Source of the DNA: a virus
Strand: one strand, 5' to 3'
Length of the DNA stretch: 64,000 bases
Virus record (IMG/VR): IMGVR_UViG_3300046792_000297
Span: 39,955 to 103,954 of that record
The translations under genes and the position numbers were made by a program. Positions 2 to 18,490 of the stretch are shown here, in pieces. A model generated the notes under the pieces. That model was not told where the DNA came from. It did not search any database and worked only from the letters and a program-made list of their open reading frames with translations. Within the stretch, counting starts at the first letter, position 1; each line of letters begins with the position of its first letter.

Positions 2-454
2 ACCACCGGGCTGGGCACCAACCTGAGCGACGAGGCTGTGGCCGCGACGCCCGACAAGTACGCCAGCGAACTGGGCGGCGGCGAAGGAGGGATGCCAGGC
101 ATGGGCGGACCGGGCGGGATGCCAGGTGGCCCACCGGGCGAGCCTGGCGAGGGCGAACCACCCAAGCCAGGCGGGGAAAACCCGCAGTTAGGCGCAGGAA
201 AGCCAGCAGGCGGCCTGGGCGGGCCTGGCGAGGCAGCCGGGCCGAGAGGCGTGGCCAACGAAGAGGCTCCCGCCAACACGCCGCGCGAGCTAACCGCGCC
301 TGCGCATCGTCCGCAACTGGGCATGGGCGGCGAGAACCCGTTCGCCCGCAAGCCGGTCGAGGATGACCAGACGGGGACTTCGCGCTATCAGCCGCCTGCG
401 GCACGGCAGCATGAAGCGCCGACTGCGAGGCAGCATGAACTCCCTGATCGCTAA
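2..454 (+). CDS. Portal protein C-terminus (partial, DUF1073-like)
   Basis: Frame open from the window start: TTGLGTNLSDEAVAATPDKY resembles the TG..TN(I/L)(T/S)DE end of DUF1073 portals, then a Gly/Pro low-complexity tail; lies upstream of head genes. Confidence 0.6.
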   Translation, partial: TTGLGTNLSDEAVAATPDKYASELGGGEGGMPGMGGPGGMPGGPPGEPGEGEPPKPGGENPQLGAGKPAGGLGGPGEAAGPRGVANEEAPANTPRELTAPAHRPQLGMGGENPFARKPVEDDQTGTSRYQPPAARQHEAPTARQHELPDR

Positions 455-1706
455 CGGCCTGGAGGACTGGACGCTGGCGGTCGACGCCGACTTTGATGAG
501 TCGGCAGTCAAGCGGGTTAGCAAAGGCAAGGAAGGCGGCGGGCAGTTCACGTCCAAGGGCGGCGGCGAAGAGAAGGGCGAGGAAGCCTACTTCGCGAGTG
601 GTATTGGACCGGGAGAAGAAGCGGAGCCGGGTTACGAGCCGCCTGCCAAGAAACTGACGCCGGGTCAGAAAGCGGCGGCGACCAAGGCTGGCAAGAAGGT
701 AATGGCCGCAGCGGCAGCGGTCCACCAGAAGACAGAAGCCGCGCAGCCGCCACAGCCCGTCACAGCCTCGAAGCATCCGAACTGGGCCGCGATGTCGCCG
801 GGGCAAAAGGCCGCCTGGACGAAGAAGCAGAACCAGGCGGCCAACAACAAAAAGATTCAGGAAGCGGCAAAGGCCACACCGGCCCAGCAGAAGCAGGCGG
901 AGCAGGCGCTGACGGCGGCGGAGCAGAAGGGCCACAAGCCGCTCTGGGTCAAAGCCACGGTGAACGGCGAACCCCAAATCTTCAAGCTCCAAGGCGTGCC
1001 CAGCGGCCTGGATAGTACGGCCAGCGTGCAGAAGCTGCTGGGCGAACAGCCCGATAAGTGGGGCGAGCTACACCCGGTTAGCGTTCAGAACGTGTCGCTG
1101 TGGAATGAATCGAAACCTCTGCCTCCCGCTTTCGAGACCGTCACGGCAGAGCAGAAGGCCATCGACAAGCTGGAAACCGAGAAGTACGAAGAGGCCAAAG
1201 CGGCGGTCCTGGCCAGCGGCCCGATCACTAGTAGCGAGTCACTAAGCGACGACATCATCTCTTCCATCAAGAGCTACACTGACGGCAGCTACCTGGCCCT
1301 GAATAAGGCGCTGCGAACCGGGCAGCCTCTGCAAAGCCACCAGGCCGTAATGGCGGCCAACCTGGACAAAGCCATTCGGAACAACAAGGTGCTGAGTGAG
1401 CGCAAGGTTTATCGTGGGCTTACGGATGCCGAAAAGTTCTTCGGCCCGACCGTGAAGATCGGCACCATCGTGATTGACAACGGCTTCATTTCAGTCAGCA
1501 AACACAGGGACACCGCCGATAACTTCGCGGGCTACAACGGCAAGGTGTGCGTGATTTCGCTGCCCAAGGGCAGCCCGGCGCTGGACATAGAGGCGTGGAG
1601 CTTGCTTGGCGATAGTGAGAAAGAAGCCCTATTACCTCGTGGTTCAATGTTCAAAGTCACCAACGTGAGCGGCAAGGAGGTTCACCTTGAGTATGCCAAC
1701 TATTGA
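435..1706 (+). CDS. ADP-ribosyltransferase (VIP2/Alt-like R-S-E clade) with shared N-terminal leader
   Basis: C-terminal YT...Y..LN..LR, VYRG, FISVS, EKEALLPRG motifs; N-terminus MNSLIANGLEDWTLAVD-ADFDES; ATG 435 follows GAGG. Confidence 0.9.
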   Translation: MNSLIANGLEDWTLAVDADFDESAVKRVSKGKEGGGQFTSKGGGEEKGEEAYFASGIGPGEEAEPGYEPPAKKLTPGQKAAATKAGKKVMAAAAAVHQKTEAAQPPQPVTASKHPNWAAMSPGQKAAWTKKQNQAANNKKIQEAAKATPAQQKQAEQALTAAEQKGHKPLWVKATVNGEPQIFKLQGVPSGLDSTASVQKLLGEQPDKWGELHPVSVQNVSLWNESKPLPPAFETVTAEQKAIDKLETEKYEEAKAAVLASGPITSSESLSDDIISSIKSYTDGSYLALNKALRTGQPLQSHQAVMAANLDKAIRNNKVLSERKVYRGLTDAEKFFGPTVKIGTIVIDNGFISVSKHRDTADNFAGYNGKVCVISLPKGSPALDIEAWSLLGDSEKEALLPRGSMFKVTNVSGKEVHLEYANY

Positions 1707-1878
1707 CCCCGAGCGGCTGAAGCGTTACCAGTGGGACCAGGACTCGCTCACCGTGGCCAGCGTGGGCACGGGCGAGGAAGTCAAGCTCGACCAGCCCAAG
1801 GAGGCCAAGAAGGACGACCAGGCCAAGGACCAGGCCATCTTCTCCAACTCGCTCGACGTGATGCTGGACGAGGAATAA
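1693..1878 (+). CDS. Small acidic protein overlapping the ART stop (candidate inhibitor/partner)
   Basis: AAGGAGG at 1674-1680; about 61 aa (TTG 1687 is an alternative start); ends AIFSNSLDVMLDEE; TAATG-coupled to the next gene. Confidence 0.7.
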   Translation: MPTIDPERLKRYQWDQDSLTVASVGTGEEVKLDQPKEAKKDDQAKDQAIFSNSLDVMLDEE

Positions 1879-2798
1879 TGATTAGCTGCCTGATCGCCAA
1901 CGGCTTGGAAGACTGGACCCTGGCGGTCGACGACTTCAAGGAAGCGGCGGTTCCGCGCGACGAGTCGGGCAAGTGGACCGGCAAGGGCGGTTCGAGCGGC
2001 GAAGCCAAGCCCCTGAACGCGGCGCACAAAGCCTGGGCCACGCGCAAAGCTAAACAGCAGGCGGCGCAATCGAAGAAGCCGGTCGACTATCTGGCCAAGA
2101 AGGTCGGCGGGCAAGGGGGCTCCAATCCGGGCGGGACCTATGAGGGCAGTGACGGCAAGAAACGCTACGTCAAGTTCTACAAGAACATGGCGCAGGGTCG
2201 GGCGGAATGCACGGCGGACACTATCTACAACGACCTGGGCATCGGCGCACACAAGAGCGACGTGTTCGAGGCGGACGGCAAAGAGGCGTTCGCGGCGGAA
2301 CTGATCGACGGCGGCGACCTGCTCAAGGATGTGGGCCTGAACAAGGAGAACGCTCGCGCCATCATGGAAGGCTTCGCGGCAGACGTGCTCATGGCCAACT
2401 GGGACAGCGTCGGCCTGGTCAACGACAACATCCTGCTCAAGGATGGCAAAGCCTACCGCATCGACAACGGGGCCACCTTCACGCACCGCGCGATGGCGTC
2501 CAGTCCGCCCAAGCCGGAAGGGCTGCTGCACAAGATCACCGAATGGGACGGGCTGTTCAACCCCAACATCAACGCGCAGTTCAGCCAGGTCGCCAAGGCC
2601 GCCGGATACAAATCGCCCAGCGACATCCCCGACATCAAGGCGCAAGTGGAGAAGATCGTCAAGCTCCGCGACCAGAGCGGCGGGTGGGACAAGTACCTCC
2701 AGGGCAAAGCGCCGTTCCTGTCCGACCAGGAGCGAAAGCAGTATGCCGGAATGCTGGACAGCCGCACCAAGCTACTGAGGGAGAAAGTCCAGGCGTGA
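1878..2798 (+). CDS. HipA/PI3-PI4-kinase-like kinase with shared leader
   Basis: GGSNPGG..Y...YVK, AE, ANWD..G...DNIL and RIDNG motifs; N-terminus MISCLIANGLEDWTLAVD-DFKEAAVPRDESGKW. Confidence 0.8.
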   Translation: MISCLIANGLEDWTLAVDDFKEAAVPRDESGKWTGKGGSSGEAKPLNAAHKAWATRKAKQQAAQSKKPVDYLAKKVGGQGGSNPGGTYEGSDGKKRYVKFYKNMAQGRAECTADTIYNDLGIGAHKSDVFEADGKEAFAAELIDGGDLLKDVGLNKENARAIMEGFAADVLMANWDSVGLVNDNILLKDGKAYRIDNGATFTHRAMASSPPKPEGLLHKITEWDGLFNPNINAQFSQVAKAAGYKSPSDIPDIKAQVEKIVKLRDQSGGWDKYLQGKAPFLSDQERKQYAGMLDSRTKLLREKVQA

Positions 2799-2808
2799 AG
2801 GGGTGGCG

Positions 2809-3672
2809 ATGAGAGATTGTCTGATCGGTAACGGCCTGGAGGATTGGACCCTCACCCTGGCGCTCGACGAGGGCGACTTCAAGGAGGAGCAGCACCCGCG
2901 CGACGAAACCGGCAAGTTCTCGCTGGGCAAAGGCGAGTCGACCGAGGAAGCCTTCAAGCATCCCACGACCGGCGAGTACGCGCCCAAGCGTTCGCAGCGC
3001 CACCAGGCCATTGTGGACAAGATCGTGGCGGGCAAGAAGTCCAGCGGAGCGCCCACCGCCTACATCATGGGCGGCGGATCGGCTTCGGGCAAGTCGACCG
3101 GCTTCAAGAAGAAGTTCGCCCGCAAGATGCGGATGGCGCTGGCGCACATCGACTCCGACGCCATCAAGAACCATCTTCCCGAGTACGAGAGGCTGAAGCA
3201 GATTGATCCCGAGAAGGCCGCCTACCGGGTGCATGAGGAGTCCAGCCACATCGCCAAGAAGGCGCTGGCGGCGGCCATTGCCGGGAAGCTCGACCTGGTC
3301 TACGACTCGACTGGCGCGGGCGGCGGCACGCAGGACATGGCCAAGCGGCTCAAGGGCGAGGGTTACAAGGTGCACGTGGTCTACTTCGACATTCCCATAC
3401 CGGAGGCCAAGGTGCGGGCCGGGAAACGGGCGGAGAAAACCGGGCGGCACATTCCCGAGCACGTGATCCAAGGTTCGCACAAGGGCAGCGCCAAGAACTT
3501 CATGGAGATGACCAAGGGCGGTCACATCGACAAGATGAGCCTCTACGATACGACCGAGCGCGTGCCCACGCTGGTCTACTCCAAGGAAGGTTCACGCCCT
3601 GGTATGATTATGGAAGGTGAGAAATGGAAAGAGTACATGAAGAAGGCGGGAGTGGAGGAGAACCAGAAGTGA
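2809..3672 (+). CDS. Zeta-toxin-family P-loop kinase with shared leader
   Basis: MGGGSASGKST Walker A, IDSDAIK..LPEY, HEESS, YDST, R...TGRHIP; N-terminus MRDCLIGNGLEDWTLTLALD-EGDFKEEQHPRDETGKF. Confidence 0.88.
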   Translation: MRDCLIGNGLEDWTLTLALDEGDFKEEQHPRDETGKFSLGKGESTEEAFKHPTTGEYAPKRSQRHQAIVDKIVAGKKSSGAPTAYIMGGGSASGKSTGFKKKFARKMRMALAHIDSDAIKNHLPEYERLKQIDPEKAAYRVHEESSHIAKKALAAAIAGKLDLVYDSTGAGGGTQDMAKRLKGEGYKVHVVYFDIPIPEAKVRAGKRAEKTGRHIPEHVIQGSHKGSAKNFMEMTKGGHIDKMSLYDTTERVPTLVYSKEGSRPGMIMEGEKWKEYMKKAGVEENQK

Positions 3673-3791
3673 TCCACCACTACACCGACGACACCGATTC
3701 CGACGTATTCCAAGACAAGGACGACCTGGCCGAGTTCGATGCCATGCTGGATAAAGCCAAGCAGGCGGCCAAGCAAAAACCCACCCAGTAA
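3669..3791 (+). CDS. 40-aa acidic peptide coupled to the zeta gene (candidate antitoxin)
   Basis: Not in the ORF track; GTGA overlap with the zeta stop, GGAGGAG RBS at 3654-3660; MIHHYTDDTDSDVFQDKDDLAEFDAMLDKAKQAAKQKPTQ. Confidence 0.7.
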   Translation: MIHHYTDDTDSDVFQDKDDLAEFDAMLDKAKQAAKQKPTQ

Positions 3792-3852
3792 TTCCCCTCA
3801 CATTCTGACCTTCTTCCGGCACCGGGAGAACCTCGACCCACGGAGAGAGCGC

Positions 3853-4095
3853 ATGGCCGACTGGGACGGAGCCCTCCAGGCTCCGCAGGGGATGTTTCGC
3901 GTGATTGGCGAGGACGAGCTACAGACACCAGCCGTGCGCTCGTGGATCGGCGACTACCGCTCGCTGGCTAGCGCCCGGCGGGTGGCCAACGACCACGCTA
4001 CGCCGCTGAATCCGGTAGTCGTATTCGATGACCAGAGCAAGACCCAGTGCCTCACCTGGGGCGACGTCGAAGTGGACGCGGAGGGCATCGTATGA
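3853..4095 (+). CDS. Hypothetical protein
   Basis: ATG after GGAGAG; ATGA overlap with the next gene. Confidence 0.65.
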   Translation: MADWDGALQAPQGMFRVIGEDELQTPAVRSWIGDYRSLASARRVANDHATPLNPVVVFDDQSKTQCLTWGDVEVDAEGIV

Positions 4096-5519
4096 GCGTG
4101 ACAGGGGGAACCACCGGTAGCTCGATCACGCTCGGCAGCCTGGGGCTGGTCAAGTACAGCGACGACGAGGTTGGCTGGGGCACGGGCTGGAACGGCAACA
4201 TGGACACCATCGACGCGGCGATCTCCAGCCTCCAGGTGGGCGGGTCGCAGGTGCAGGCCGACTGGGATGCGACCTCGGGCCTGGCCGAGATTCTCAACAA
4301 ACCGGACCTGGCTCCGGTCGCGACTTCGGGCGACTATGCCGATCTGGTCGGCGTGCCCGCGCTGCCGCACAACTTCAGTTCGCAGCCGCACCTGTTCCTG
4401 AACGGCTACAACGCCATCCTGGGCGTGTTCTCGGCGGCCCAGGCGACCGCGTCGGACGTCTCGGGGCTGGCACCTATCGCCATCTCGGGCAGCTACAACG
4501 ACCTCACCAACAAGCCAGTGCTGCCTGCGACTCAGGTGGCAGTGCCCAATCGCTTCTTCACCGCCTACAGCGCGACGACTGGCTTGTTTACGGAGGCGCA
4601 GCCTACAGCGCTGGACGTCTCCGGCCTGGCCGCCGTGGCAACCTCCGGCTCCTACACTGATCTCATCAACAAGCCGGTCCTGGCGGCTAACTCGCCTGCG
4701 GTGGCTCACCAGTTTCTCACCAGCTACGACAACATCACCGGGGCGTTCACCAAGGCCCAACCTGGCGCGGCGGATGTCAGCGGGCTGGCTCCTTCGGCAA
4801 CTATCGACACCACCAACGCGCTCAACATCACTTCGGGCACGCTGGCCGTGGCGCGGCTGCCTGTCATTCCGGCCACGCAGATCAGCGGGCTGGCGCTGGT
4901 GGCCACTTCGGGCTCCTATCTCGACTTGAGCAACAAGCCGGTGCTGGCAGCGACCATTGCCGCGACACCGAACAACTTCCTGACCGCCTACAACGCGGTC
5001 ACGGGTATCTTCACCAAGGGCCAACCGGCAGCGACGGACGTAACCGGCCTGGCCACGGTCGCCACGACCGGCAGCTACACCGACCTGATCAACAAGCCCA
5101 TCCTGCCAGTCAACACGGGCAGCACGCCGCACCAGTTCTTCATCGCCTACGACAACACGACCGGCGGCTTCCTCAAGGCGCAGCCAGCGGCGGCGGATGT
5201 GACTGGTTTGGCGACGGTCGCCACTTCGGGCTCCTACAACGACCTCACCAACAAACCAGTCTTGTCCACCGTGGCAGGCTCGGGCTCCTACCTGGACCTC
5301 ACGCACAAGCCGACCTACTCATTCTGCCCAGGCACGACGCCGGGTACGGTGTTCGTCTCGCCAGGCGCGGTGATCGCGGTGACCTACAACGGCACCGTGC
5401 TGCCGCGCGGCGTGGCCGCTCCCAAGCTGAGCTACACGCTGGCCGGGGATAACGTGACGATCACGCTCAACTTCACTGCCGAAGCCGGAGACCGAGTCGA
5501 TGCGTTCTGTACTACTTAG
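4092..5519 (+). CDS. Fibre-like structural protein with 53-aa repeats
   Basis: Five about 53-aa units starting LA.VATSGSY.DL.NKP plus partial copies; N-terminal LGL....GWG...N.N...ID motif typical of phage fibres. Confidence 0.8.
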   Translation: MSVTGGTTGSSITLGSLGLVKYSDDEVGWGTGWNGNMDTIDAAISSLQVGGSQVQADWDATSGLAEILNKPDLAPVATSGDYADLVGVPALPHNFSSQPHLFLNGYNAILGVFSAAQATASDVSGLAPIAISGSYNDLTNKPVLPATQVAVPNRFFTAYSATTGLFTEAQPTALDVSGLAAVATSGSYTDLINKPVLAANSPAVAHQFLTSYDNITGAFTKAQPGAADVSGLAPSATIDTTNALNITSGTLAVARLPVIPATQISGLALVATSGSYLDLSNKPVLAATIAATPNNFLTAYNAVTGIFTKGQPAATDVTGLATVATTGSYTDLINKPILPVNTGSTPHQFFIAYDNTTGGFLKAQPAAADVTGLATVATSGSYNDLTNKPVLSTVAGSGSYLDLTHKPTYSFCPGTTPGTVFVSPGAVIAVTYNGTVLPRGVAAPKLSYTLAGDNVTITLNFTAEAGDRVDAFCTT

Positions 5520-8500
5520 GGCAGTCGGAATAATGATTTTTGTGCTGGCGGGGCGGGCGGCGGCTCAGAGCAACCCGCACACCCAGATCGCCTGGCCCGC
5601 GAACTGCGACGACAGCAACTTCATGACCTACAACGTGCTCTCGAATACCTGCTTCAATGCCGGATCGACTAAACGTCCCATCGCGCCGCTAGCCAACGTT
5701 TCCCGGCCCGCGAGTTCCTCGGCCACCGGCGCGGCCATGCCCCAACAGGTGATCGCTTTCTTAGGTAATTCGCTGGTCGCGGGTGACACTGGGAGCACCA
5801 CCGAATTTTGCAATGAAGCAGGGATAGCTTCCACTAACGGACTTGGTCCTTTATTTATGGCGGGACACCAGTGCCGCCCGGCAACCAACATCACCGTGGA
5901 CAGCAGTAACAATGTGACCCTGGCGGTCAACAACGCCGACGGGTACTTTCAGAATGGTACGCGCTTCACCGCGTATGGTGGGGCAGGAGTGGATGGCGGA
6001 TGTCTCTACGATTCCTACATCGTCACCAGTGCCACGACAACGCAGATCGTATTCCCCAGTGCGCCCAACACGCCTTGCGCTCCGCTCGCCAGCACTCCGG
6101 TGGTCGCGAACAATGTTTTGTTGACCACCAGCCTCCAGAGGTTCGGCCAAAACGGCGGTTCGCTGGATTCATGGTTTAGCACCGTAGGCAACTGGACCTT
6201 TTCCGGCTACAAGACTTGGATTCAAGGAGCAATCGCGGCGGGGCAAACCCCGATTACCATCATGCGCGATGCGGGAATCATGACCAATTCCACCCGTATG
6301 AGCGCAATGGACTATCGGGCCTGGATGGCCGACCTCATGCCGGTGATCGCGGCTATCCAGGGCATTAGTGCTACGAATCCGGCAGGAGAAACAGTTTATG
6401 TTTCCAGCTTGCCATTCTACATCGACACCGGGAATCCCGAGGCTTGCAACACCGCTATGACGGCTTCCAGTACAGCGCCGTGTTCGGGAGGTCAGAACAC
6501 TGGGGCTGGCGGAGTGTATGTTCCACCCGTGCAGATGCCAGCCGGTGTGCAATATGTCTTCCCTTATGGGACACCGGGAAGCCAGTTTACAACTCCCGCT
6601 ACGATCACATCGGGAGCCATCAGCGCGGGAGCCAATACGGTAACGATCAATCCGTGTCCGCCTGATCTTTGGGGTGGTCCCGGCGATGTGATTCCCACCG
6701 CACTCGATTCGAACGGACTGCTACGCAGTCACGGCAACCTGATCCAGATGGTGGTTGATTCTGCCGCCTCGGCTGCGCAGGAACTTGTTTCGTTGACCGC
6801 GATCATCCCCACGGGAGCAACTGGACTGCATAATTGGCAGACTTGTCAGGTATCGTTCACTGCCGCTTTCGCTCATGCTGCGAACGCACCGATTTATGCC
6901 ACGCAGTTTACGGCTGACCAGACCTGGGTGCGGTGGAAGCTGCAAATCCCTTATGATGTGGCGGCTGCTTATCCCGGCCACATTGAAGTAATAGACACGC
7001 TCACCGCGATGGGGCGACAGGTTGCGAATCCCGGCTGGTGGATAGGGAATGAGCTTCATCCTGGTCTGGGTGGATACGCCAAGATCGGCAACCGGGAATT
7101 CACGGCACTAGCGTCCTATCAGCTTGCGCCCAAGCCTCCACCTACTCCTGATCCTTTAGCGTTTGATTATGCCACGCACCAAGTCAGCTTGCGAACAGGC
7201 GCGATTGACATCAACTTTGATCTCGACGCGGCAACGGCGGCTCGTGCCTTAGCTCTTGGGCACAATTGCGGTATGTACTACAACAAGTGCGACATAGACC
7301 CAGCTATGTTTTATCCCTCTGCCCTCTCGCCCACCATGACCTTCACTCACGGTACGCAGTTTGCTCGTATGACGATGGCGATTCAATCGGGGCAGAATTT
7401 GAGTGGAGACGGGCAAACGGGCGATTTTCTCTATACCAGTGTTGGGGGTAGCTGGCAACCAACGACACTAACTGCAATGGGGTTTGTTCCCGCCAGCTTA
7501 CTGGGTTTCAATTTTACCGGCACCCCCCCTGTGGACATGTCTGGCCGAGGGGCCATCATGCGTCCCTTCTATGCTGATCCGCTACAAGGAGCGAAGTTTG
7601 CCGCGCATCCGATCAGTTATCCGCTGAATGGCACCTATAACCTCAAGGTGGGCACTTCAACAACGAATAACCTGGTGTTTTCCATTCCCGTCGCTCAGAA
7701 TCCCGCTGTCATTGGCGGGCAGACTCTAACCTGTTTGCAAATCGAGATGCAAGCCGGAGACTGGATTGTCACCGCAGGAAACATTCCCGGTTCACAGGCT
7801 ACCGCCGCCGGGGTGTCCATCCAGTTGCCGACCGGAAGCTGGAATCCTCTCACCTGCACCTGGACGGACACCAGCGGAACAAACTACAGCGTCTACAACG
7901 GCGTGATGGCTACGCTGGTGCAGCAGTTCAGAGCGCCGGATGCAACGTTCAGTCTCGTTACCGCGCAGCAAAAAATACAAACACAAGCACTAACTGCGTT
8001 ACAGGGCGTTCAATCGCCCGGTACGCCCACTGTTATAGGTGTGGTTGGAGGAGCATTTACAAGCGCAACTACTGGCGGCAATTGCGCGAATGGAACAGCT
8101 TACACTCTAGGTCTGGCTTACATGCCTCTTGGTTGGGGAACGGACTACACTCATGCAGGTGCGATTCGCACCGTCTATGCAGTCTATACGCCAACTACCG
8201 GTACGACAACGGATGTTGTCGGAATCAATATCACTACAGCAGCGCCCTTTGGTTACACAACGGTAGCCTATCTGCTTATTGGTGGGACTTATTATGCGTT
8301 CGGCAAAGCACCGTCCACAGGTGCAGGTGTGATTACGACAACCTGCCCAGCAACCGGCGCTGGATTGATTGTGGCCAACACTTATGATAACGGCAGTGTG
8401 GGCTTTGTAGGCCCGGCATTCAGTTCGAGCGCCCCCCAGACCACTGTCAACTGTTCCACTTCAGGAACTGCAATCTTCGCGCAGACGCAAACCGGATCGA

Positions 8501-8697
8501 GCGAGAAGAAGGTGCTGGTCTATCTGGCGGCTTGCAGCGGCACGGCCAGCTACACCTTCCCGGTGCCGTTCACCCACTCGCCCAGCGTGTTCGGCTCGGA
8601 CGATGTGGCGGCCAGCATCGTGACGGCCAAGAGCACGACCGCCGTGACGGTGACCGGTGCGCCGTCGACCGGGGCGCTCGTGCTGGACAGCTTCTGA
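5500..8697 (+). CDS. Large secreted-type protein with SGNH/GDSL-like esterase domain and fibre-like C-terminus
   Basis: Signal-peptide-like MRSVLLRAVGIMIFVLAGRAAA-Q; AFLGNSL block I and ELHP...GY block V motifs; Cys/Thr/Gly-rich. Confidence 0.7.
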   Translation: MRSVLLRAVGIMIFVLAGRAAAQSNPHTQIAWPANCDDSNFMTYNVLSNTCFNAGSTKRPIAPLANVSRPASSSATGAAMPQQVIAFLGNSLVAGDTGSTTEFCNEAGIASTNGLGPLFMAGHQCRPATNITVDSSNNVTLAVNNADGYFQNGTRFTAYGGAGVDGGCLYDSYIVTSATTTQIVFPSAPNTPCAPLASTPVVANNVLLTTSLQRFGQNGGSLDSWFSTVGNWTFSGYKTWIQGAIAAGQTPITIMRDAGIMTNSTRMSAMDYRAWMADLMPVIAAIQGISATNPAGETVYVSSLPFYIDTGNPEACNTAMTASSTAPCSGGQNTGAGGVYVPPVQMPAGVQYVFPYGTPGSQFTTPATITSGAISAGANTVTINPCPPDLWGGPGDVIPTALDSNGLLRSHGNLIQMVVDSAASAAQELVSLTAIIPTGATGLHNWQTCQVSFTAAFAHAANAPIYATQFTADQTWVRWKLQIPYDVAAAYPGHIEVIDTLTAMGRQVANPGWWIGNELHPGLGGYAKIGNREFTALASYQLAPKPPPTPDPLAFDYATHQVSLRTGAIDINFDLDAATAARALALGHNCGMYYNKCDIDPAMFYPSALSPTMTFTHGTQFARMTMAIQSGQNLSGDGQTGDFLYTSVGGSWQPTTLTAMGFVPASLLGFNFTGTPPVDMSGRGAIMRPFYADPLQGAKFAAHPISYPLNGTYNLKVGTSTTNNLVFSIPVAQNPAVIGGQTLTCLQIEMQAGDWIVTAGNIPGSQATAAGVSIQLPTGSWNPLTCTWTDTSGTNYSVYNGVMATLVQQFRAPDATFSLVTAQQKIQTQALTALQGVQSPGTPTVIGVVGGAFTSATTGGNCANGTAYTLGLAYMPLGWGTDYTHAGAIRTVYAVYTPTTGTTTDVVGINITTAAPFGYTTVAYLLIGGTYYAFGKAPSTGAGVITTTCPATGAGLIVANTYDNGSVGFVGPAFSSSAPQTTVNCSTSGTAIFAQTQTGSSEKKVLVYLAACSGTASYTFPVPFTHSPSVFGSDDVAASIVTAKSTTAVTVTGAPSTGALVLDSF

Positions 8698-8705
8698 GGA
8701 CCATT

Positions 8706-8927
8706 ATGCCCATCACTGACCTCGAACACGCGCAACTTCGGGTGGAGCATGGGCAGTTGAAGTTGCAACTGCTGGAAGCGCAGAGCCGGATCGTGCAGCT
8801 TCAACACACGCTGCTCGCTAAGGAACTGGAGCAGGCGACCAAAGATTATCAGGCGCTCAAGGAGCAGGCCGATGCCCAGGTCGACCAGACCCTCAACCTC
8901 AACGGCCATCTTCGCGAACAGTCTTGA
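8706..8927 (+). CDS. Small coiled-coil protein (possible fibre chaperone)
   Basis: GAGGA RBS; Leu/Gln heptads; directly after the fibre-like gene. Confidence 0.6.
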   Translation: MPITDLEHAQLRVEHGQLKLQLLEAQSRIVQLQHTLLAKELEQATKDYQALKEQADAQVDQTLNLNGHLREQS

Positions 8928-9372
8928 CTACTGGACAGACTCCCAGTGGGCGGCGGACGCGGCGCAGTCTACCTTTCGCCGCCTGCATGGTTTGTTAATT
9001 GTTGTTGAAAATCCACAATACTCGCTGCGCCAGGGACGCGGCTGGATGTCTGCCGCACCCGCTGATTACGGCTACATCGCAGGCACCAAGGGAGCCGACG
9101 GCGACGAAATCGACTGCTACGTGGGTGACAACCCGGAGAGCCGGATCGCCTATATTGTGGATCAGAATAAAGTCGGCTCGCCGTTAGAGTTCGACGAACA
9201 TAAGGTATTCCTAAACTACCCTTCCCTGGCTGCGGCCAAGCAAGACTACCTCGACGGGCACACGGACGGCGCGAAGATTCTTCGCGCCATTACGGCTGTC
9301 GACCTGAAGACTTTGAAAGCGTGGCTGAAGCAGAGTAACCATGAGCGACCCTACAGCGAAACCGCAAGATAA
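8872..9372 (+). CDS. Inorganic-pyrophosphatase-like (phage InPase-type) protein with leader variant
   Basis: ENP...R.G..W...DYGYI.GT.GADGD.ID.YVG...DQ...FDEHKV.L motifs; N-terminal AIFANSLDYWTDSQWAAD-AA. Confidence 0.85.
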   Translation: MPRSTRPSTSTAIFANSLDYWTDSQWAADAAQSTFRRLHGLLIVVENPQYSLRQGRGWMSAAPADYGYIAGTKGADGDEIDCYVGDNPESRIAYIVDQNKVGSPLEFDEHKVFLNYPSLAAAKQDYLDGHTDGAKILRAITAVDLKTLKAWLKQSNHERPYSETAR

Positions 9373-9496
9373 TGGACCGGGCAAGAGCCTGACCATCGTG
9401 ATCTGCCCCCGGTGTGGCGCACTGATCTCCGAGGAACTGAAGGCCAAGCACAACGAGTGGCACGAGCAGCTACGGCAGATCGGTATGCCGGAATGA
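9341..9496 (+). CDS. 51-aa C2H2 zinc-finger peptide
   Basis: Hand translation: CPRC...HNEWH; fills the gap between the InPase and topoisomerase genes. Confidence 0.55.
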   Translation: MSDPTAKPQDNGPGKSLTIVICPRCGALISEELKAKHNEWHEQLRQIGMPE

Positions 9497-9508
9497 AAGG
9501 TCGCGCCC

Positions 9509-10789
9509 ATGAACGCCAGCTTTGCCAACTCCCTCGACGGGATCGACTGGGACGAGTCAGCCTGGGCGCTCGACGCCGAGTTCGATGAATCGGCCATCAA
9601 GCGTGTAAGCGCGGGCAAGGAAGGCGGCGGCCAGTTCGCGTCCGGCGGCGGAGCCGCAGGAGCCGAAGCTGGAGCCGAGGCGGGCGAACGCGAGCCCGTG
9701 GCGGGCGGTGAACAGGAAGCGGGCGCAGAGGGCGAGGAAGGCGAAGAGGACGAAGAGGAAGACGAAGAGGCGGGAGCCAAGCAGAAGGCCCGCAAGTCGG
9801 CCCACCTGGTAGCGGCGGGCGAGAACCGCGAGCAGTGGCCGGAACACATTCGCAAGATGGTCATCCCACCCGCCTGGACCGACGTCCAGATCGCCATGTC
9901 GCCCGACGCCGACCTGCAAGTGGTGGGCCGGGACAAGAAGGGCCGCAAGCAGTACGTCTACTCGGAGCAGTTCAAGAACTCGCAGGCGGCGCTGAAGTAC
10001 GCCCGCATGGAGTCGCTGCGCCAGGAGAAGCCGGGTATCATCGGCCAGCTTGCGGAGATGCACCAGAGCGCCGACCGCAAGCTGCGCGACCACGCCGACT
10101 GTGCCACGCTGGTCATGAAGATGGGCATCCGGCCTGGCTCGGACACCGACACCAAGGCGGAGAAGAAGGCTTACGGCGCGAGCACGCTCGAAGGCAAGCA
10201 CGTGGTGGTCGAGAACGGCCAGGTCTTCCTGCGCTTCACGGGCAAGAAGGGCGTCGACCTGAACCTGCCGGTCGAGGACAAGACGCTGGCCGCCAACCTG
10301 GCCAGCCGGGCCAAGAAGGCCGGGGCGGAGGGGCGGCTGTTCGGCGACGTGTACTCCGGTTCGCTGCTCCAGTTCGTCAAGAAGGACCTGGATCACGGCG
10401 GCTTCAAGACCAAGGACTTCCGTACCCTGCTGGCCAACGAGTTGGCCGTCAAGGCCATGAAGGGCGTGGCCAAGCCCAAGGATGCCAAGCAGTACAAGGC
10501 GGCGGTCAAGGAAGTGGCCACGCACGTGTCCAGCCGGTTGGGCAACACACCCACGGTCGCGCTCCAGTCCTACATCCACCCGGCGGTGTTCGGCGAGTGG
10601 AAGGGGGCCGCCGACGTACCGGCGGTCCAGGCCAAGGGCAAGAAGAAGGGTAAAGCCAAGGGGAAGAAGAAGCCCGCCGCCAAGCCCGCCGAGCCCGGCA
10701 AGCTGAGTGGAGCCGCGCTGGCCTGGGCCACGCGGCGAGCCGCCAAGGAGGCCGCCCATGCCGGAACCGCAGCCGCAGCCGCAAGCTGA
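9509..10789 (+). CDS. DNA topoisomerase IB (bacterial/poxvirus type) with shared leader
   Basis: IPPAWTDV, GRD.KGRKQY.Y, IRPG, YGASTL, FTGKKG, KDFRT, LGNTP.V...SYI with R-K-R-N-Y catalytic set; N-terminus MNASFANSLDGIDWDESAWALD-AEFDESAIKRVSAGKEGGGQF. Confidence 0.93.
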   Translation: MNASFANSLDGIDWDESAWALDAEFDESAIKRVSAGKEGGGQFASGGGAAGAEAGAEAGEREPVAGGEQEAGAEGEEGEEDEEEDEEAGAKQKARKSAHLVAAGENREQWPEHIRKMVIPPAWTDVQIAMSPDADLQVVGRDKKGRKQYVYSEQFKNSQAALKYARMESLRQEKPGIIGQLAEMHQSADRKLRDHADCATLVMKMGIRPGSDTDTKAEKKAYGASTLEGKHVVVENGQVFLRFTGKKGVDLNLPVEDKTLAANLASRAKKAGAEGRLFGDVYSGSLLQFVKKDLDHGGFKTKDFRTLLANELAVKAMKGVAKPKDAKQYKAAVKEVATHVSSRLGNTPTVALQSYIHPAVFGEWKGAADVPAVQAKGKKKGKAKGKKKPAAKPAEPGKLSGAALAWATRRAAKEAAHAGTAAAAAS

Positions 10790-10955
10790 CGAGGAACTGC
10801 CCGAACTGCACTTCGGACGCGCCGACGCGCCGCCGCTCGACTGGAGGAAGTACAAAGATGATTCCCTGGATGATGACGAGCCGCTTGCGCAAACGCCTGC
10901 GAGCACGGTTGCAATCCTCGGCTTCGACCCCCTCGACCTCGACAGCGACGAATAA
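10758..10955 (+). CDS. Small very acidic protein overlapping the topoisomerase stop (candidate inhibitor/DNA mimic)
   Basis: AAGGAGG RBS; 65 aa, D/E-rich, ends TP.ST..ILGFDPLDLDSDE. Confidence 0.7.
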   Translation: MPEPQPQPQADEELPELHFGRADAPPLDWRKYKDDSLDDDEPLAQTPASTVAILGFDPLDLDSDE

Positions 10956-10977
10956 TGATTTTTCCGGGGGTGCGCTC

Positions 10978-11193
10978 ATGTCGCCGCCGCTCGACTGGAG
11001 AAGGTACAAGGTACACATCGACCCGGACGCCATCGTGATCCAAGGCAAGCGCATCGACCTGGGCGTGTTCCTGGCCCTGATCGACGCCGACAAGCGGCTG
11101 CTCTGGCGCTTCATTGAGCGCGAGGGCAAGATCGAGGCCGTGTGCTTCGACGAACAGCAAGTGATCTGGATCGACCAACCACCGGCAGAATAA
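10978..11193 (+). CDS. Hypothetical protein
   Basis: 71 aa with GC3-rich codon usage; starts with PPLDWRRYK, duplicated from the previous gene. Confidence 0.6.
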   Translation: MSPPLDWRRYKVHIDPDAIVIQGKRIDLGVFLALIDADKRLLWRFIEREGKIEAVCFDEQQVIWIDQPPAE

Positions 11194-11220: not shown

Positions 11221-14200
11221 ATGAAGCGAATCCTGGGCTGGACCCTCTTGCTCTTCGTGTGCCAGGCCGCGCTCGCGCAGATGGCGCAAACCCCCAACCT
11301 GGGCTTGAACCTGCCGCCGCAGGGCTACCCCAACTGGGCCAACCTCAACAACCAGAACTTCGTCACCATCGACGCCGTAGTCGGCGGCTTGCAAAAGCAG
11401 TGGCAGGGCACCTGGACCTCGGCGGTCACCTACCAACCGGCGCAAATCGTCACCTGGCAAGCCTCGTCCTACATCTCCATCACGGGCACCAACGCCAACA
11501 ACCAGCCCGACCTCTCGCCTGGCTACTGGGCCAAGATCGGCACGACGGCGGCGGGAGCCGTGAATGAGTTGCAGATGAATGCCGGGGGTAGCTTCGCCGC
11601 GACCACCGGCATGACCTACGACCTCACCAGCAATACGCTGCGTGCGCCGCAGGTCAACGTGAGCGGCAACATTCAGGGCGTCTCGTTGAAGTTGAGCGGG
11701 CTGGCTCCCGGCTCGGCATTGGTCTGCACCAGTGGCACCGACGGCACGCTGACCAATGGAGCGTGCAGCGTTCCACCCGCCTCTGTGGCCTGGCCGCCAA
11801 GCTGCACGGGGGTCTACGCGCCTGCTACCAATACCTGCGTAGCGGTGGGAACGGCGGCCAATCCCGCAGGCAACGTCAAGGAAGTGCAATTCAATGCAGG
11901 AGGGACGTTTGGCACTGATTCTGCCATCACCATCGACAACTCCACGCACACGCTCGGCTCACAAAACGTTTCCGGCAGCGCCAACACCGTTCTCTATGTG
12001 AAAGCTCCTCCATACAACGCCAAATGCGACGTTCATGTAGGCGGGTTGGGAGATGCGGTCATTACTTCCGGCACGACCACTTACGGTGGTTTCTCGACTG
12101 CGGATGTGGGCAAGACCGTCAAGGGCGTCTCATCTCAAGCTAATGGGAGCGTGTCTTATGTTGGCAAGATTGTTTCATGGGTAGGCGGGACCACCACGCT
12201 CAGCCCCGCCGCCACCATCACGCTTCATTATTGGGAGTGGGCAACCGACGATCATGACTCACTCATGGCAGCGCTCAATGATGCGTATGCTCAGAACGTA
12301 GAAATCCAGCTTCCCGCTGGGCAGTGCTTAACTAGCACGCTTGTCTGGAAAGGGCAGTCCTTTCACGGCTCTGGAAGGGGCGTAAGCTATGTCAGAGGTA
12401 TGCCGGGACAAGATGTGTTTCAGATGCCAGAGTATGGCACCAGTTACTCCATTACGTCATGGTCGATCACTGGGAACGTGGCGACTTTTCAGACTACTAG
12501 CAATAATCTGCTAGCAGGGAACGTCGTTACTCTCGGCGGCTTCGGAACATCCACGTTTTTCAATCTGCAAACCGTGACTGTCACTTCGGCTACAGGGACT
12601 CAATTTGTTGCGCCCATCACTCATGCTAATGGCTCTGCCACAGAAGCTGGCTTTGCGGCAACTGGTGGAGCATTTCCTATCACGTCGTGGTCGATCACTG
12701 GAAACGTGGCAACTGTTCAAGTAGCTAACAATTTTCCAGCGGGAGCCAATATTACTTTAAGCAGGTTTGGGACTTCCACATTTTTCAACGCTCAAAATGT
12801 GACCATCCTCGCGGCGGGTCTTTCTCCAACTCAGTTCTCTTTTAACTTTACTCATGCTAACGGTTCGGCCACGGAGTCTGGACTGGCGACAACCCAAGCT
12901 ACTTCCATACGCCAGTTCAACGTTCATGATCTCAGTATCGTAATCGATTCGACGGTGAACGCGGCAGCGACGGCGGCAGGTGGGAACAACACTTTTCCCT
13001 ACCGCATAGGCGGAACCTTTCAGGGGATGACGCCGTTCACTCCTCCCCCCGCTCCCGGTGTTCCAGTATTCGGAACGTGTGGCGCTGGGGGAGGGTACGC
13101 CGACGCTGGCGGAACTCTGGTGACTATCACCTGCCCCCTTACTGGGTTACCCCTCAACCTTGCCAGCTTAGAGCCGACGTGGGTGATCAATGCTCCAATT
13201 ACTGTCGATGGAGCAGGAGCGGCTGGCGGAGTATATGCAGGTCACATTCAAAGTATTGTCAACGATGGTGTCACCAGCGTTTCTGGTTCTGGAGGAAGCG
13301 GGATGACGGTAGGCACTTACCCGCTCTCCTTCTCTGGAGGGGGCGGGTCTGGCGCATCGGGGACCATCGCGGTGACAAACGCCACTACTTATGTGGTGCT
13401 TCTTAGGGTTGGAGGCGCAGGCTACACTTCTCCGCCAACGGTAACCGCTGCTACTGGAGGGACGCCGCCGACGTTTACAGCCGCCATCGGAACTAGCTGC
13501 GCTGGTGGGACCATCTGCACCGTGCGCGTGGATAATGCCATTGCTACATCAGTGAGTGCCACTACCGGTACTTGGTTAACCGCACAGACGCCACCGTGGT
13601 ACTTCGGCAACGCTGGCATCGCGATGCCGTGTTCTGGTGGGGGTGCTTGCAATGGAGTCGGCTTCAGTGTTATTCGCAACGTAAACTTTGATCAGGTAGC
13701 CAACGGCTATATCGGCAGAAGCCACACTACGGGTATCTTCACGCAGGCGCAGATGTACGGAGATAGCTTCGAGAACCTAGTCTTCACTCAGCTCTACGGA
13801 GGTTACATCGAGGTGCAGCCTCCTGCTGGAAATCTCAGCACCGCCGATACCATGTCATTCAAGGATATTAGCTTTTACAACGAGAACTTCCCGATCATGA
13901 CTTACAACGGCAATGATCGTGTGATCAACGGCATGAATATCTATCAAGAGCTTCTCCTTTCGGAGGGGCCGTTTTTCTTCAGCAGGCAGCAGGCTCTTTC
14001 GGGGTATCTAAACTGGGCGATCAACAGCTTCTATATCGAAGGCGGAGCTTCTACCAACGGAGAATGGGCGCGTTTTCAAGGTGGCCCTTTTCATATGAGG
14101 GCGGCCAGCTTCGGCGGCGGGAACCCGGCTGGATCATACATCGAGTTCACGGGTGGTGGGTCAAGTTTGTGGGAAGGTGGGATTGGCGGCGCTCTTCATA

Positions 14201-16388: not shown

Positions 16389-17249
16389 ATGCCCGGCTTC
16401 CGCCCGCCCAACCGCATCGAGATCGCTTACCGGCGGGCCATCACCGACGCGCTGGCCGAACTGCTCGGCCTGATCCCGCCCGACCTCAGTGAAGGCGAGT
16501 GGCTCACCCAACTGGCGGCGCTCGGCTACCGCCCGGAGATGCTCGACCTGGCCGCTCGCACGGCCTACAAGATGGTCGAGTGGATCAACATCGACAACGC
16601 CAAGAGTTGGCGGGCCGCCTCGCGGCAGTCGCAACGCTCGCAAAGATTATTCCGCCTCTTGCAGCACGAACTGGCCGGGCCGGTCGGCGTCACCCTGAAC
16701 TGGCTGGTGCGGGAGAACGCCAAGCTGATCTCCTCGATCCCGTCGACTGTCGCGTCGATGTTGACCGGCGAGATCGCGACGGCGGCGCAGGGCGGAGCCC
16801 GGCACGAAACGATGACGCGGATGATGCGGGTCCGCTTTCCCGAATTGACCCACAACCGCATCGCCCTGATTGCTCGCACGGAGACGGCCAAGGCGTCGAC
16901 GGCGCTCACGCGAGCGCGGTCGGAAGAGTTGGACCTGACCTGGTTCGTCTGGAAGACTTCGGAGGATCGCCGGGTGCGCCCGGCGCATAAGAACCTGAAC
17001 GGCGTGCTGGTTTCCTGGGCCGACCTGCCGCAGCCCGAGGCGCTGATCGGGGAGAAGAGCACGCTGGGCAAGGGCGCGGCGGGCGACTTTCCCAACTGCC
17101 GCTGCTACCCCGCCCCGTTGCTCTCGCTCGACGACGTGTTCGCCAACGGCAGCGTGCGGGCGCGGGTGTATCACAACGACCACATTGAACGCATGACGCG
17201 GGCGCAGTTCGCGCGGCTGTCGGGCGTCGAGCGCCGCTACGCGGCTTGA
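16389..17249 (+). CDS. MuF / SPP1 gp7-family head morphogenesis protein (no C-terminal toxin extension)
   Basis: R...IARTET.K, W.TS.D.RVR..H..L.G and NCRC motifs. Confidence 0.92.
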   Translation: MPGFRPPNRIEIAYRRAITDALAELLGLIPPDLSEGEWLTQLAALGYRPEMLDLAARTAYKMVEWINIDNAKSWRAASRQSQRSQRLFRLLQHELAGPVGVTLNWLVRENAKLISSIPSTVASMLTGEIATAAQGGARHETMTRMMRVRFPELTHNRIALIARTETAKASTALTRARSEELDLTWFVWKTSEDRRVRPAHKNLNGVLVSWADLPQPEALIGEKSTLGKGAAGDFPNCRCYPAPLLSLDDVFANGSVRARVYHNDHIERMTRAQFARLSGVERRYAA

Positions 17250-17260
17250 AGGACACCATA

Positions 17261-18490
17261 ATGCCTACACGCAAGGATGCAGTCGCCGACCTGGGCTTCG
17301 ATCCCACCGGCAAGCAGGACTGTTCGCCCCGTCTGACCGACTACCTCAATTCCAGCGACGCCAATGGCGGCGAACTGCACTTCCCTGCCGGGCGCTACTA
17401 CTACCGCTCCACCGTGGAAAGCAACCAGAAGAACGTCAAGTTGGTGGGCGACGCACACTTGGCCAACATGGGCGACAGCCCGGTGGCCTTCTGCTCCGAT
17501 CAGTATCTTGAGGCGATTTTGTGGTGGAACGGTTCGCAACCTACTTCCAATATGAACGGGCCGAGAATCGACCACGTTCAATTTCAGGACACCAGCAGCG
17601 ACCACGCTCACTTGCGTAGCGCCATCCGCCTCACCGCGACCGCGAACGCGGAACTCAAGGTGGGCTTTTTGAATCTTCATCCGCAACGCTACTGCAATGG
17701 CACGGCGGCGGTGAGCACCAACTCGAAGACCGTTCAGGGAGCGGGCACCAAGTGGCAGGACTACATGAGCCGCTGTGCCTGGCTGGTGATTGATGGCTAT
17801 CCGTATGAGATCGCCAGCGTGGAGTCGGAGACTGCGCTGACGCTGGCCATCGAGTACCAGGGGCCGACCGCCAGCAATAAAGGATACGCAATCAACTGGG
17901 GCGGCGTGGGCGTGTGGCTCGATCCAGGCACAGACTTTTGTCAGTATGGCAAAGAATGGAGCTTGAATGGCCGCTGTGCGTGCGCCCTGTTCGCAGCGGC
18001 GGGCGCTACCAGCCCGCGCTACACCGGGACCAGCAGGATCAAGGTATTGAGTGGCTACTTAAATGGCGAGGGGATTCCAGACAGCATCGCCGGTTATTTC
18101 GGACCCTATTCCGACACGTTCGTTTGGGATTGCGCCATGAACTCGTTTGCCTTCGGACTTGTCATTGCGAACGGACACCAGCACGACGTGCAACATGGCG
18201 ATTATGAAAATGCTGGCGGGCCGGTGCCGGTCACGGGTAAGCCGTTGAGCTACGATTCCTGCCACGGCATCCTGGTCATGTCCTCCAATCACAGCGATAC
18301 CTGGGGCAACCGCCTGGGTGGATATTTCAGACAGATCGGGACGGCGATGGAACTCTATGGCACGCCCGGCAAAGCGCCTGATTGGACAATCATCGGCGTG
18401 TCCACCTTCCGCTCCAACAAGGCCAAGCTGATCGTGGGCAACGCCACCAACACCGAAATTCTGCAACCGTCGCTCGCGGGCGGCGTGTAA
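17261..18490 (+). CDS. Beta-helix (pectate-lyase-like) protein, possible depolymerase
   Basis: D.G.DPTG..DC and L.FPAG.Y N-terminal signature; Gly/Asn-rich beta strands. Confidence 0.6.
   Translation: MPTRKDAVADLGFDPTGKQDCSPRLTDYLNSSDANGGELHFPAGRYYYRSTVESNQKNVKLVGDAHLANMGDSPVAFCSDQYLEAILWWNGSQPTSNMNGPRIDHVQFQDTSSDHAHLRSAIRLTATANAELKVGFLNLHPQRYCNGTAAVSTNSKTVQGAGTKWQDYMSRCAWLVIDGYPYEIASVESETALTLAIEYQGPTASNKGYAINWGGVGVWLDPGTDFCQYGKEWSLNGRCACALFAAAGATSPRYTGTSRIKVLSGYLNGEGIPDSIAGYFGPYSDTFVWDCAMNSFAFGLVIANGHQHDVQHGDYENAGGPVPVTGKPLSYDSCHGILVMSSNHSDTWGNRLGGYFRQIGTAMELYGTPGKAPDWTIIGVSTFRSNKAKLIVGNATNTEILQPSLAGGV

Follow-up and report, generated by a model that had tools for sequence, protein, structure and literature searches.

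The stretch of DNA analyzed here (the window, 64,000 nucleotides [nt] long, bases 39955-103954 of a 103,954-bp IMG/VR virus record that has direct terminal repeats and is rated complete) makes up the right arm of a phage with a complete genome of 104 kb. In its left part, the genes for an ADP-ribosyltransferase (ART), a zeta-toxin-type kinase, and a type IB topoisomerase (Topo IB) are each overlapped at the 3′ end by a small open reading frame (ORF), referred to here as s61, s40, and s65, respectively. Each small ORF corresponds to a conserved segment directly behind one enzyme domain: s61 behind ART, s40 behind zeta, and s65 behind Topo IB. Other phages have these segments either fused in frame to the enzyme or split from it by an overlapping stop and start. 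Segments that are split in some phages and joined in others typically point to physical or functional association, and the pattern agrees with a break-up of the polyvalent proteins known from phages and conjugative elements [Iyer, Burroughs, Anand, de Souza, and Aravind 2017, PMC5512222]. Because the pairings are conserved in other phages, split or fused, s61, s40, and s65 are therefore best described as detached accessory segments of polyvalent-type virion effectors. The conservation of these enzyme-partner pairings beyond this phage is new here.

The three small ORFs lie at the positions given for them in an earlier note on this DNA, each across the stop of the upstream enzyme gene (Table 1), and they are rich in acidic residues as that note had it: Asp and Glu make up 15 of 61 residues in s61, 10 of 40 in s40, and 18 of 65 in s65, with isoelectric points of 4.36, 4.47, and 4.05. 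The stop of s61 also overlaps the start of the next gene (TAATG). Strong ribosome-binding sites had been claimed for all three. AAGGAGG or GGAGGAG does precede each start, but the s40 site encodes a conserved peptide, KKAGVE, and is therefore weak evidence when taken alone. Moreover, the ribosome-site sequences of all three fall within the enzyme coding sequence. Codon usage was scored as log-likelihood per codon with a model trained on the long genes of the window; s61 reaches 0.65, s40 0.58, and s65 0.22, compared with a mean of 0.45 (sd 0.21) for windows of true genes and -0.69 for off-frame windows. The G+C fraction at third codon positions of s61 is 0.89. Codon bias supports all three, and s61, s40, and s65 are real genes. 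They are also functionally tied to the upstream enzyme: in the co-occurrence check in other phages, which the earlier note had proposed, all three enzyme-partner pairings recur with the same stop/start overlap, and zeta-s40 and Topo-s65 also occur as natural in-frame fusions.

The most widely conserved of the three is s65. A phmmer search among 1.84 billion representatives returned 233 relatives at E<=1e-3 (best E 4.8e-15, 66% identity), mostly 50-100 amino acids (aa) long and 45-66% identical across s65 residues 13-63. Together they define a module of ~55 residues with the consensus LPDVHFG..(A)P.DWRK..DD..DDDEEL..TP.DVVAMLGFDPLE, hereafter the LGFDP module. s65 matches the family pattern LPDVHFG..DWRK..acidic..TP.DVVAMLGFDP and scores 87.8 bits on the family hidden Markov model (HMM). 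There is no model of the module in Pfam, PHROGs, or NCBIfam, and tblastn with s65 gave no match in 50,697 phage records. One protein of 633 aa (P0158) has two tandem copies of the motif TP..V...LGFDPL at its N-terminus. An AlphaFold2 (AF2) model of the module from a 112-sequence alignment has a predicted local distance difference test (pLDDT) score of 85, a predicted template modeling score of 0.39, and two short helices only, and the ESM pLDDT is 0.26. We read the module as an extended peptide and not as a globular domain; the predictions are compatible with a peptide that folds on a partner. The family profile found no credible match among PDB sequences; matches to light-harvesting proteins in that search were judged a coincidence of motif. 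That s61 and s65 might be paralogues was considered and rejected (pairwise z 0.0; s61 against the family HMM, E 13).

The tie of the module to Topo IB emerges from two samples of loci. The first was selected by the module and comprises 74 IMG/VR loci, 60 of them distinct. In at least 50 of the 60, the Topo IB C-terminus (..GNTPTVALQSYI.P.VF..WR..) lies directly upstream, usually overlapping the start of the module, and in three module-selected loci Topo IB is in frame with it. A start codon is found close before the module motif in these loci; 40 of the 60 distinct modules stand alone and 20 are fused to a larger protein. The second, independent sample consists of 80 loci picked by Topo IB alone. 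The module follows Topo IB in 71 of them (~90%), and three of the nine loci that do not show it have <=132 nt of sequence beyond Topo. The 64 unique modules of this sample divide into 37 stand-alone ORFs, 24 fusions to the next protein, and 3 that share the frame of Topo; of the 61 separate modules, 55 start between -16 and +75 nt from the Topo stop. Natural fusions of Topo and module are seen in L072, L088, L099, L136, L147, and L180. The upstream Topo-bearing ORFs are between 271 and 1266 aa long and the genes downstream differ (Mu F-like, DUF2213, and others), while the junction is constant. Likewise, Topo does not adjoin the portal gene in the window, and s65 is still found behind Topo. 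s65 is a stand-alone member of a large unannotated family that is tied to Topo IB.

Throughout the 74 module-selected loci, the module is N-terminal in its ORF. The long proteins that it opens carry ART (P0048), InPase and ART (P0120), DUF2213 (P0131), Mu F (P0138), XkdF protease (P0053), or NUDIX and kinase-like (P0063) domains. This feature speaks for a different role: the LGFDP module, together with its short forms LIANGLEDW and FANSLD, would be a linear peptide docking proteins in the procapsid or on the portal, Mu F, or the protease. In this scenario, s65 and the s61 tail would be leader-only genes (assembly or scaffold-like parts, loading competitors, or Topo IB tethers), and s40 would be a structural tail of zeta. 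We regard such a docking or address role as possible rather than probable; it is a serious rival nonetheless, for s65 especially.

The leaders themselves bear on this question. On its + strand, the 104-kb genome has six matches to the motif [FILVM][AGS]N[GS]L[DE], all in the effector region: five at effector N-termini and one at the s61 C-terminus. Across 1.46 Mb of related loci, one sister phage is the only other place where the motif is found, apart from three scattered matches. A search with a back-translated pattern of the leader NGLEDWT returned chance matches only. The earlier note had ascribed a C-terminal address motif to one partner, and s61 is indeed such a case, but s65 too ends in an address-type sequence, VAILGFDPLD, which is the canonical form of its family. 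The short leaders and the LGFDP module are followed at a similar distance by [DE][FW].E..HPR..G.F, so that the EF.E..HPR..G.F linker after the module is the same as that after the short leaders of the window. Moreover, an ORF at 17261-18490 starts with MPTRKDAVADLGFDPTG, a canonical short LGFDP leader. The shared linker and this ORF start favor docking, and they suggest that the short leaders correspond to the final portion of the LGFDP module, a kinship that amounts to pattern resemblance because the family HMM misses both the short leaders and s61. Docking also leaves two things unexplained, namely the place of the module directly after Topo IB in ~90% of loci with variable flanks, and the presence of three different partners on three enzymes that share a leader.

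Two side observations concern these leaders. A linker of the form [DE][FW].E..H[PK]R....G.F plus a glycine run recurs after every leader or module, both in this phage (window 2890-2925 and 9560-9640) and in distant polyvalent proteins (P0048, P0063, P0081, P0110, and P0120); it may be a processing or hinge site. In the 409-aa protein encoded by 17261-18490, residues 144-212 match tail-fiber PHROGs, and a head-type leader on a fiber-like protein is odd.

For zeta, the nearest homologues are 52-57% identical. A single-protein scan of IMG/VR with zeta found no relatives, and an alignment-based scan yielded 28 related loci. In L023, an ORF that overlaps the zeta stop as ATGA encodes MSKVNHYQGCDSEVFRDEKDLAEFEKLLKEAKKKE..., which aligns with s40 (VIHHYTDDTDSDVFQDKDDLAEFDAMLDKAKQ); in L022, the overlap is GTGA and the ORF, which starts VSKSKVLHFNAVDSEVFRADDDAAEFSSMVD..., also aligns with s40. 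A seventh member was recognized in L024 with an HMM built from six (E 0.007 before inclusion), 41 nt beyond the end of the zeta match and in another frame relative to zeta. In L025, L026, and L043, zeta is an inner domain of proteins 1000-1900 aa long and the s40 segment follows in frame (e.g., GHYTDYNKDIFDDSDDIDDFSKLLEQE), and in a 349-aa protein (P0007) the segment is the end of the protein. The segment is thus split in four cases, including the window, and fused in four (L025, L026, L043, and P0007). It is a separate ORF in four phages even though their zeta kinases are only 40-57% identical. Among the loci, the s40 HMM finds only these known members, all of them just past the end of the zeta match. 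No further member was detected there, the small acidic ORFs behind zeta in L027, L028, and L030 included. These ORFs (e.g., ..SPDDDDEAVAEYFKAKKFKE), which occur in more distant loci, may be analogous partners.

The AF2 model of P0007 (pLDDT 80), whose zeta is 41% identical to that of the window, is predicted to consist of a zeta core, a disordered linker at 299-316, and a helix at 324-348 with block-mean pLDDT of 84-94. It aligns to 1gvn, 3q8x, 2p5t, and 4z8u with Z 17.5-18.9 (zeta, PezT, and AvrRxo1). The alignments span residues 48-297 of the zeta core, and the tail helix falls outside every one of them. The s40 family profile gave only chance matches (E>1) against all PDB sequences, with none that was credible to epsilon, PezA, or AvrRxo1-ORF2, and s40 has no match in Pfam, PHROGs, or NCBIfam; for a profile of 44 positions, however, such an absence carries little weight. 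As s40 lies downstream of zeta, it does not follow the order of epsilon/zeta-type pairs, in which the partner is upstream. From its split and fused forms, s40 is a detached C-terminal module of this zeta subfamily.

The overlaps could also be read as recoding sites. Frameshifting out of the enzyme gene would give a fraction of C-terminally extended enzyme, as in the G/GT tail chaperones. All three small ORFs do overlap the 3′ end of the enzyme gene in another frame, and versions fused in frame exist in other phages. The frame relation varies, however: by codon-position arithmetic it is -1 from zeta to s40 in the window, L022, and L023 but +1 in L024, and it is +1 for both ART-s61 and Topo-s65. 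In almost every locus, the enzyme stop has a start codon on it or beside it, and no slippery heptamer of the type X XXY YYZ was seen by eye in the zeta/s40 overlap. Because of the varying frame and the start codons, programmed frameshifting is less likely than other explanations; we hold it to be very improbable.

The partner of ART, s61, is rarer. The closest ART (50% identity) is carried by L090, where it is arranged as module plus ART. An ORF at L090:6268-6405 (MSADERDARYKWEEDDDMEVVEVGKGAVLD...) overlaps the ART stop by 14 nt, exactly as s61 does in the window, and in both cases the ATG lies within conserved LEY[AV] codons. Comparison of this ORF with s61 (MPTIDPERLKRYQWDQDSLTVASVGTGEEVKLD) gave z 5.0 and a shuffle p of 0.0002, and the ORF ranked first of 19,066 six-frame pieces. 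The gene that follows it is not a kinase; therefore, the conserved neighbor of s61 is ART. Other searches with s61 found no relatives: none in a single-protein scan of IMG/VR, no tblastn match in 50,697 phage records, only s61 itself among proteins of 33-107 aa in an index of 5.8 billion proteins and nothing among the longer ones, and no family in Pfam, PHROGs, or NCBIfam. A search for loci with a two-sequence ART alignment gave one incomplete locus.

Only the last 12 residues of s61 resemble a short leader. The earlier note had likened this end to the InPase and Topo leaders; its last ten residues, FSNSLDVMLD, are identical at 9 of 10 positions to the N-terminal FANSLDVMLDG of two effectors of the sister phage G001, whose leaders read MKCLFANSLDVMLDGW and MRAIFANSLDVMLDGFEESEHPR. 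In the aligned DNA, differences within the motif are mostly at third positions. Given this identity and the largely synonymous differences, which are also in line with docking, the s61 tail is a true leader sequence, of a subtype that no present effector of this phage uses. Either an effector has been lost and its 5′ end remains fused to s61, or the tail serves s61 as a working tag.

A further reading is that the small ORFs are evolutionary debris, i.e., functionless leftovers, translated or not, of polyvalent break-up and of cassette exchange at leaders and palindromes. The palindrome AATAATnATTATT is present in 18 copies in the window when up to 2 mismatches are allowed, with 0.15 expected; positions include 1874, 5529, 10951, and 15950, plus 14 more. 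The four copies that were read in the effector region are all at gene junctions, and the three with AATAATGATT contain the ATG. The palindrome may mark the borders of cassettes or transcription units. Both s61 and s65 stop within a copy, exactly at AATAATGATT, as would be expected of debris. The L090 homologue of s61 has no leader tail, which makes the tail look like the fused 5′ end of a lost effector, and effector sets differ among relatives. In addition, a 28-nt direct repeat links s65 with the following gene, orf71. Its first copy lies inside s65 and its second, encoding MSPPLDWRRYK, at the start of orf71; the two have a protein motif in common (z 6.3), and the 154-nt repeat unit spans the palindrome. 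The repeat may be a duplication from cassette insertion. Debris nevertheless does not account for the 37 of 64 unique Topo-selected modules that stand alone, the start codon near the motif in module-selected loci, the 233 clusters of s65 relatives, the maintenance of s40 as a separate ORF in four phages with zeta identity of only 40-57%, or the coding codon bias of s61, s40, and s65. We consider this explanation improbable. Debris and recoding are both less likely than docking or the role that we favor.

That role, which we favor tentatively and at slightly less than even odds, is that of an enzyme-specific pro-segment, an inhibitor or chaperone. Each peptide would bind its own enzyme, and the stop/start overlap would couple translation so that enzyme and peptide are made in roughly matched amounts. 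The peptide would then serve as a pro-segment acting in trans that, during phage assembly, keeps an enzyme with the potential for harm in check or helps it to fold. With their terminal address-type motifs, s61 and s65 could enter the procapsid alongside the enzyme, which would be set free by proteolysis or by dissociation after ejection. The earlier note likewise had the partners as cognate inhibitors that may be co-packaged and cut at x-x-D sites by the prohead protease. A job specific to the enzyme is suggested because ART, zeta, and Topo already share one leader, yet each has a different partner. The pro-segment role is further favored because overlaps of stop and start are usually taken to couple translation and match amounts, and because there is a precedent in EzeT, a zeta toxin whose antitoxin domain is active in cis and in trans [PMC4803016]. 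By analogy, an inhibitor or pro-segment role is plausible.

Several points weigh against it. The conservation of s61 rests on a single homologue, the codon score of s65 is only moderate (0.22), and the s40 and s65 profiles bear no credible likeness to solved structures, among them epsilon, PezA, and AvrRxo1-ORF2. The module is fused to the N-terminus of the next protein in 24 of 64 unique cases versus 3 of 64 for Topo, and the proteins so joined belong to different head families (Mu F, DUF2213, XkdF, ART, InPase, and NUDIX). The fusions look like those of a general leader, and an N-terminal position of this kind agrees no less well with docking or addressing than with an inhibitor specific to Topo. 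Phage T4 packages an ART (Alt) that is not known to have an inhibitor, and a lytic phage may need no immunity at all.

A more general idea, which we think unlikely as it stands, is that virion-delivered enzymes are handled as zymogen-like pairs. The acidic pro-segment would be safety catch and loading tag in one, its motif (LGFDP, NSLD, or NGLE) would work at either end of a protein, Topo IB-LGFDP would be the most widespread form, and the system might be a phage counterpart of the cargo-loading peptides of encapsulins. Encapsulin cargo is docked on the inner face of an HK97-fold shell through a short linear G-S-L-type motif; the resemblance to NSL, NGL, and LGF is one of pattern only.

Known pairs of zeta-fold kinase and small acidic co-translated partner, i.e., epsilon/zeta, PezAT, EzeT, and AvrRxo1, offer the nearest comparison for s40. 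AvrRxo1-ORF2 is encoded downstream of its zeta-like toxin, and the AvrRxo1-ORF1:ORF2 pair thus has the partner on the same side as s40. EzeT, with an antitoxin that is joined and yet works in trans, matches the occurrence of s40 in split and fused forms, but its antitoxin domain is N-terminal while the s40 segment is C-terminal in the fusions. In contrast to toxin-antitoxin pairs in general, s40 is downstream, 40 aa long, predicted to form a single helix, and unlike epsilon and PezA in sequence, and it sits in a phage head module and not in an addiction module.

Short targeting sequences are also known from other phages: T4 has a capsid targeting sequence on its internal proteins and on Alt, and the propeptides of giant phages are cut by the prohead protease. 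As in T4, short N-terminal leaders are present here on unrelated proteins that are encoded in the head region and would be delivered together with the DNA, a packaged ART among them. Unlike in T4, the sequences are LIANGLEDW, FANSLD, and LGFDP, the motif of s61 is C-terminal, and the module at full length is an acidic segment of ~55 aa that is often free-standing.

With the polyvalent proteins, the window shares a repertoire of ART, InPase, zeta-type kinase, NUDIX, and Mu F/portal fusions, and InPase has itself been described as a polyvalent domain [PMC5512222]. It also shares a location among head genes and a predicted delivery of the proteins from the virion [PMC5512222], and relatives of the phage hold these domains in single proteins of 1000-1900 aa. 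Here, by contrast, every domain has its own gene headed by a short leader common to the set, and the segments between domains survive as small ORFs. Each effector domain is an ORF of its own in the window and part of a fusion in the related loci L025, L026, L031, L043, and L047. The effectors of the window are accordingly unbundled versions of the multi-domain polyvalent virion proteins of related phages. PMC5512222 names topoisomerase once, in its reference list, and the Topo IB-LGFDP pairing has no model in Pfam, PHROGs, or NCBIfam.

Only in a handful of systems (T4, P1, N4, and giant phages) is it known how phages load enzymes into the capsid and how they escape harm from them until packaging. 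The present analysis adds three concrete enzyme-peptide pairs and a widespread, unannotated acidic family of ~55 aa whose members flag Topo IB genes in phages. Should the peptides prove to be inhibitors, zeta kinases, ARTs, and type IB topoisomerases would have minimal antitoxin-like regulators of a new class; should they prove to be address tags, they would provide a portable signal with which foreign proteins could be loaded into phage heads. In either case, the LGFDP family deserves an annotation model. ORFs of 40-65 aa are often missed by gene callers.

The effectors lie between the portal gene and a Mu F-like gene. The terminase (genome 35595-36857) and portal (genome 38633-40408) genes are just upstream of them; downstream follow the Mu F-like gene (window 16389-17249), a DUF2213-type gene (20217-21884), and capsid-like genes. 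The interval from portal to Mu F encodes ART, a kinase-like protein, the zeta-type kinase, two large fiber- or spike-like proteins, InPase, and Topo IB, and a Pfam scan confirms ADPrib_exo_Tox, Zeta_toxin, InPase, and Topoisom_I (Table 1). The sister phage G001 (95.6 kb; Topo 56% identical) has portal, a 277-aa effector, InPase, Topo, an s65 homologue, an orf71 homologue, and Mu F, and ART is absent from it; effector sets thus vary between related phages. In tblastn searches, orf71 matched L023, L072, L070, and L090.

Table 1. Positions of the effector genes, their small partners, and associated sequence elements in the window
Feature	Position	Strand	Remarks
ART effector, N-terminal leader MNSLIANGLEDW	435..1706	+	Pfam ADPrib_exo_Tox E 2.5e-17; leader motif match
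s61, 61 aa	1693..1878	+	ATG 1693; alternative start TTG 1687; 14-nt overlap with ART stop (1704-1706)
Leader-type motif AIFSNSLDVMLD at s61 C-terminus	1834..1869	+	
Palindrome copy at s61 stop and kinase start	1874..1886		Palindrome AATAATnATTATT
Kinase-like effector, leader MISCLIANGLEDW, no small partner after it	1878..2798	+	
Zeta-toxin-type kinase effector, leader MRDCLIGNGLEDW	2809..3672	+	Pfam Zeta_toxin E 8.9e-28
s40, 40 aa	3669..3791	+	GTG 3669; GTGA overlap with zeta stop; frame open from ATG 3624
InPase effector, leader ..AIFANSLDYW	8872..9372	+	Pfam InPase E 1.4e-31
zn51, 51 aa, zinc-ribbon-like, non-acidic	9341..9496	+	32-nt overlap with InPase 3′ end
Topo IB effector, leader MNASFANSLD	9509..10789	+	Pfam Topoisom_I E 8.6e-18, Top1B_N_bact
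s65, 65 aa	10758..10955	+	ATG 10758; 32-nt overlap with Topo IB end (10789)
28-nt direct repeat, first copy, inside s65 (encodes PPLDWRKYK)	10828..10855	+	93% identical to 10982-11009
Palindrome copy at s65 stop	10951..10963		
orf71; start holds second repeat copy (MSPPLDWRRYK)	10978..11193	+	
409-aa protein after the Mu F-like gene, start MPTRKDAVADLGFDPTG	17261..18490	+	Family HMM E 0.41, genome six-frame translation

The earlier note listed partners for ART, zeta, and Topo only. InPase, however, also has a small ORF that overlaps it downstream, the non-acidic zn51. Each end of InPase in fact has an overlap, one of 56 nt with an upstream ORF of 73 aa that is apparently coiled-coil (8706-8927) and one of 32 nt with zn51. 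In G001, both small ORFs flanking InPase are absent, and InPase starts 5 residues before the leader motif.

The kinase-like effector lacks an adjacent partner, as had been noted before: no small ORF was found between its gene and zeta. It has no match in Pfam, PHROGs, or NCBIfam. By eye, it resembles the C-terminal regions of the polyvalent proteins P0063 and P0110, and it has tblastn matches to polyvalent ORFs in several loci. It therefore looks like another effector family without annotation. The motifs GSNPGG...Y.K and ANWD..G..N.N are shared between it and domains of many polyvalent proteins. Finally, on the minus strand of L206 (G001:C1:34000-53900), at ~12311-12772, a HicB-like antitoxin ORF (MLSYVATIQPDGDTFMVSFPDFPGVYSQGDD..) lies between effector genes on the opposite strand.

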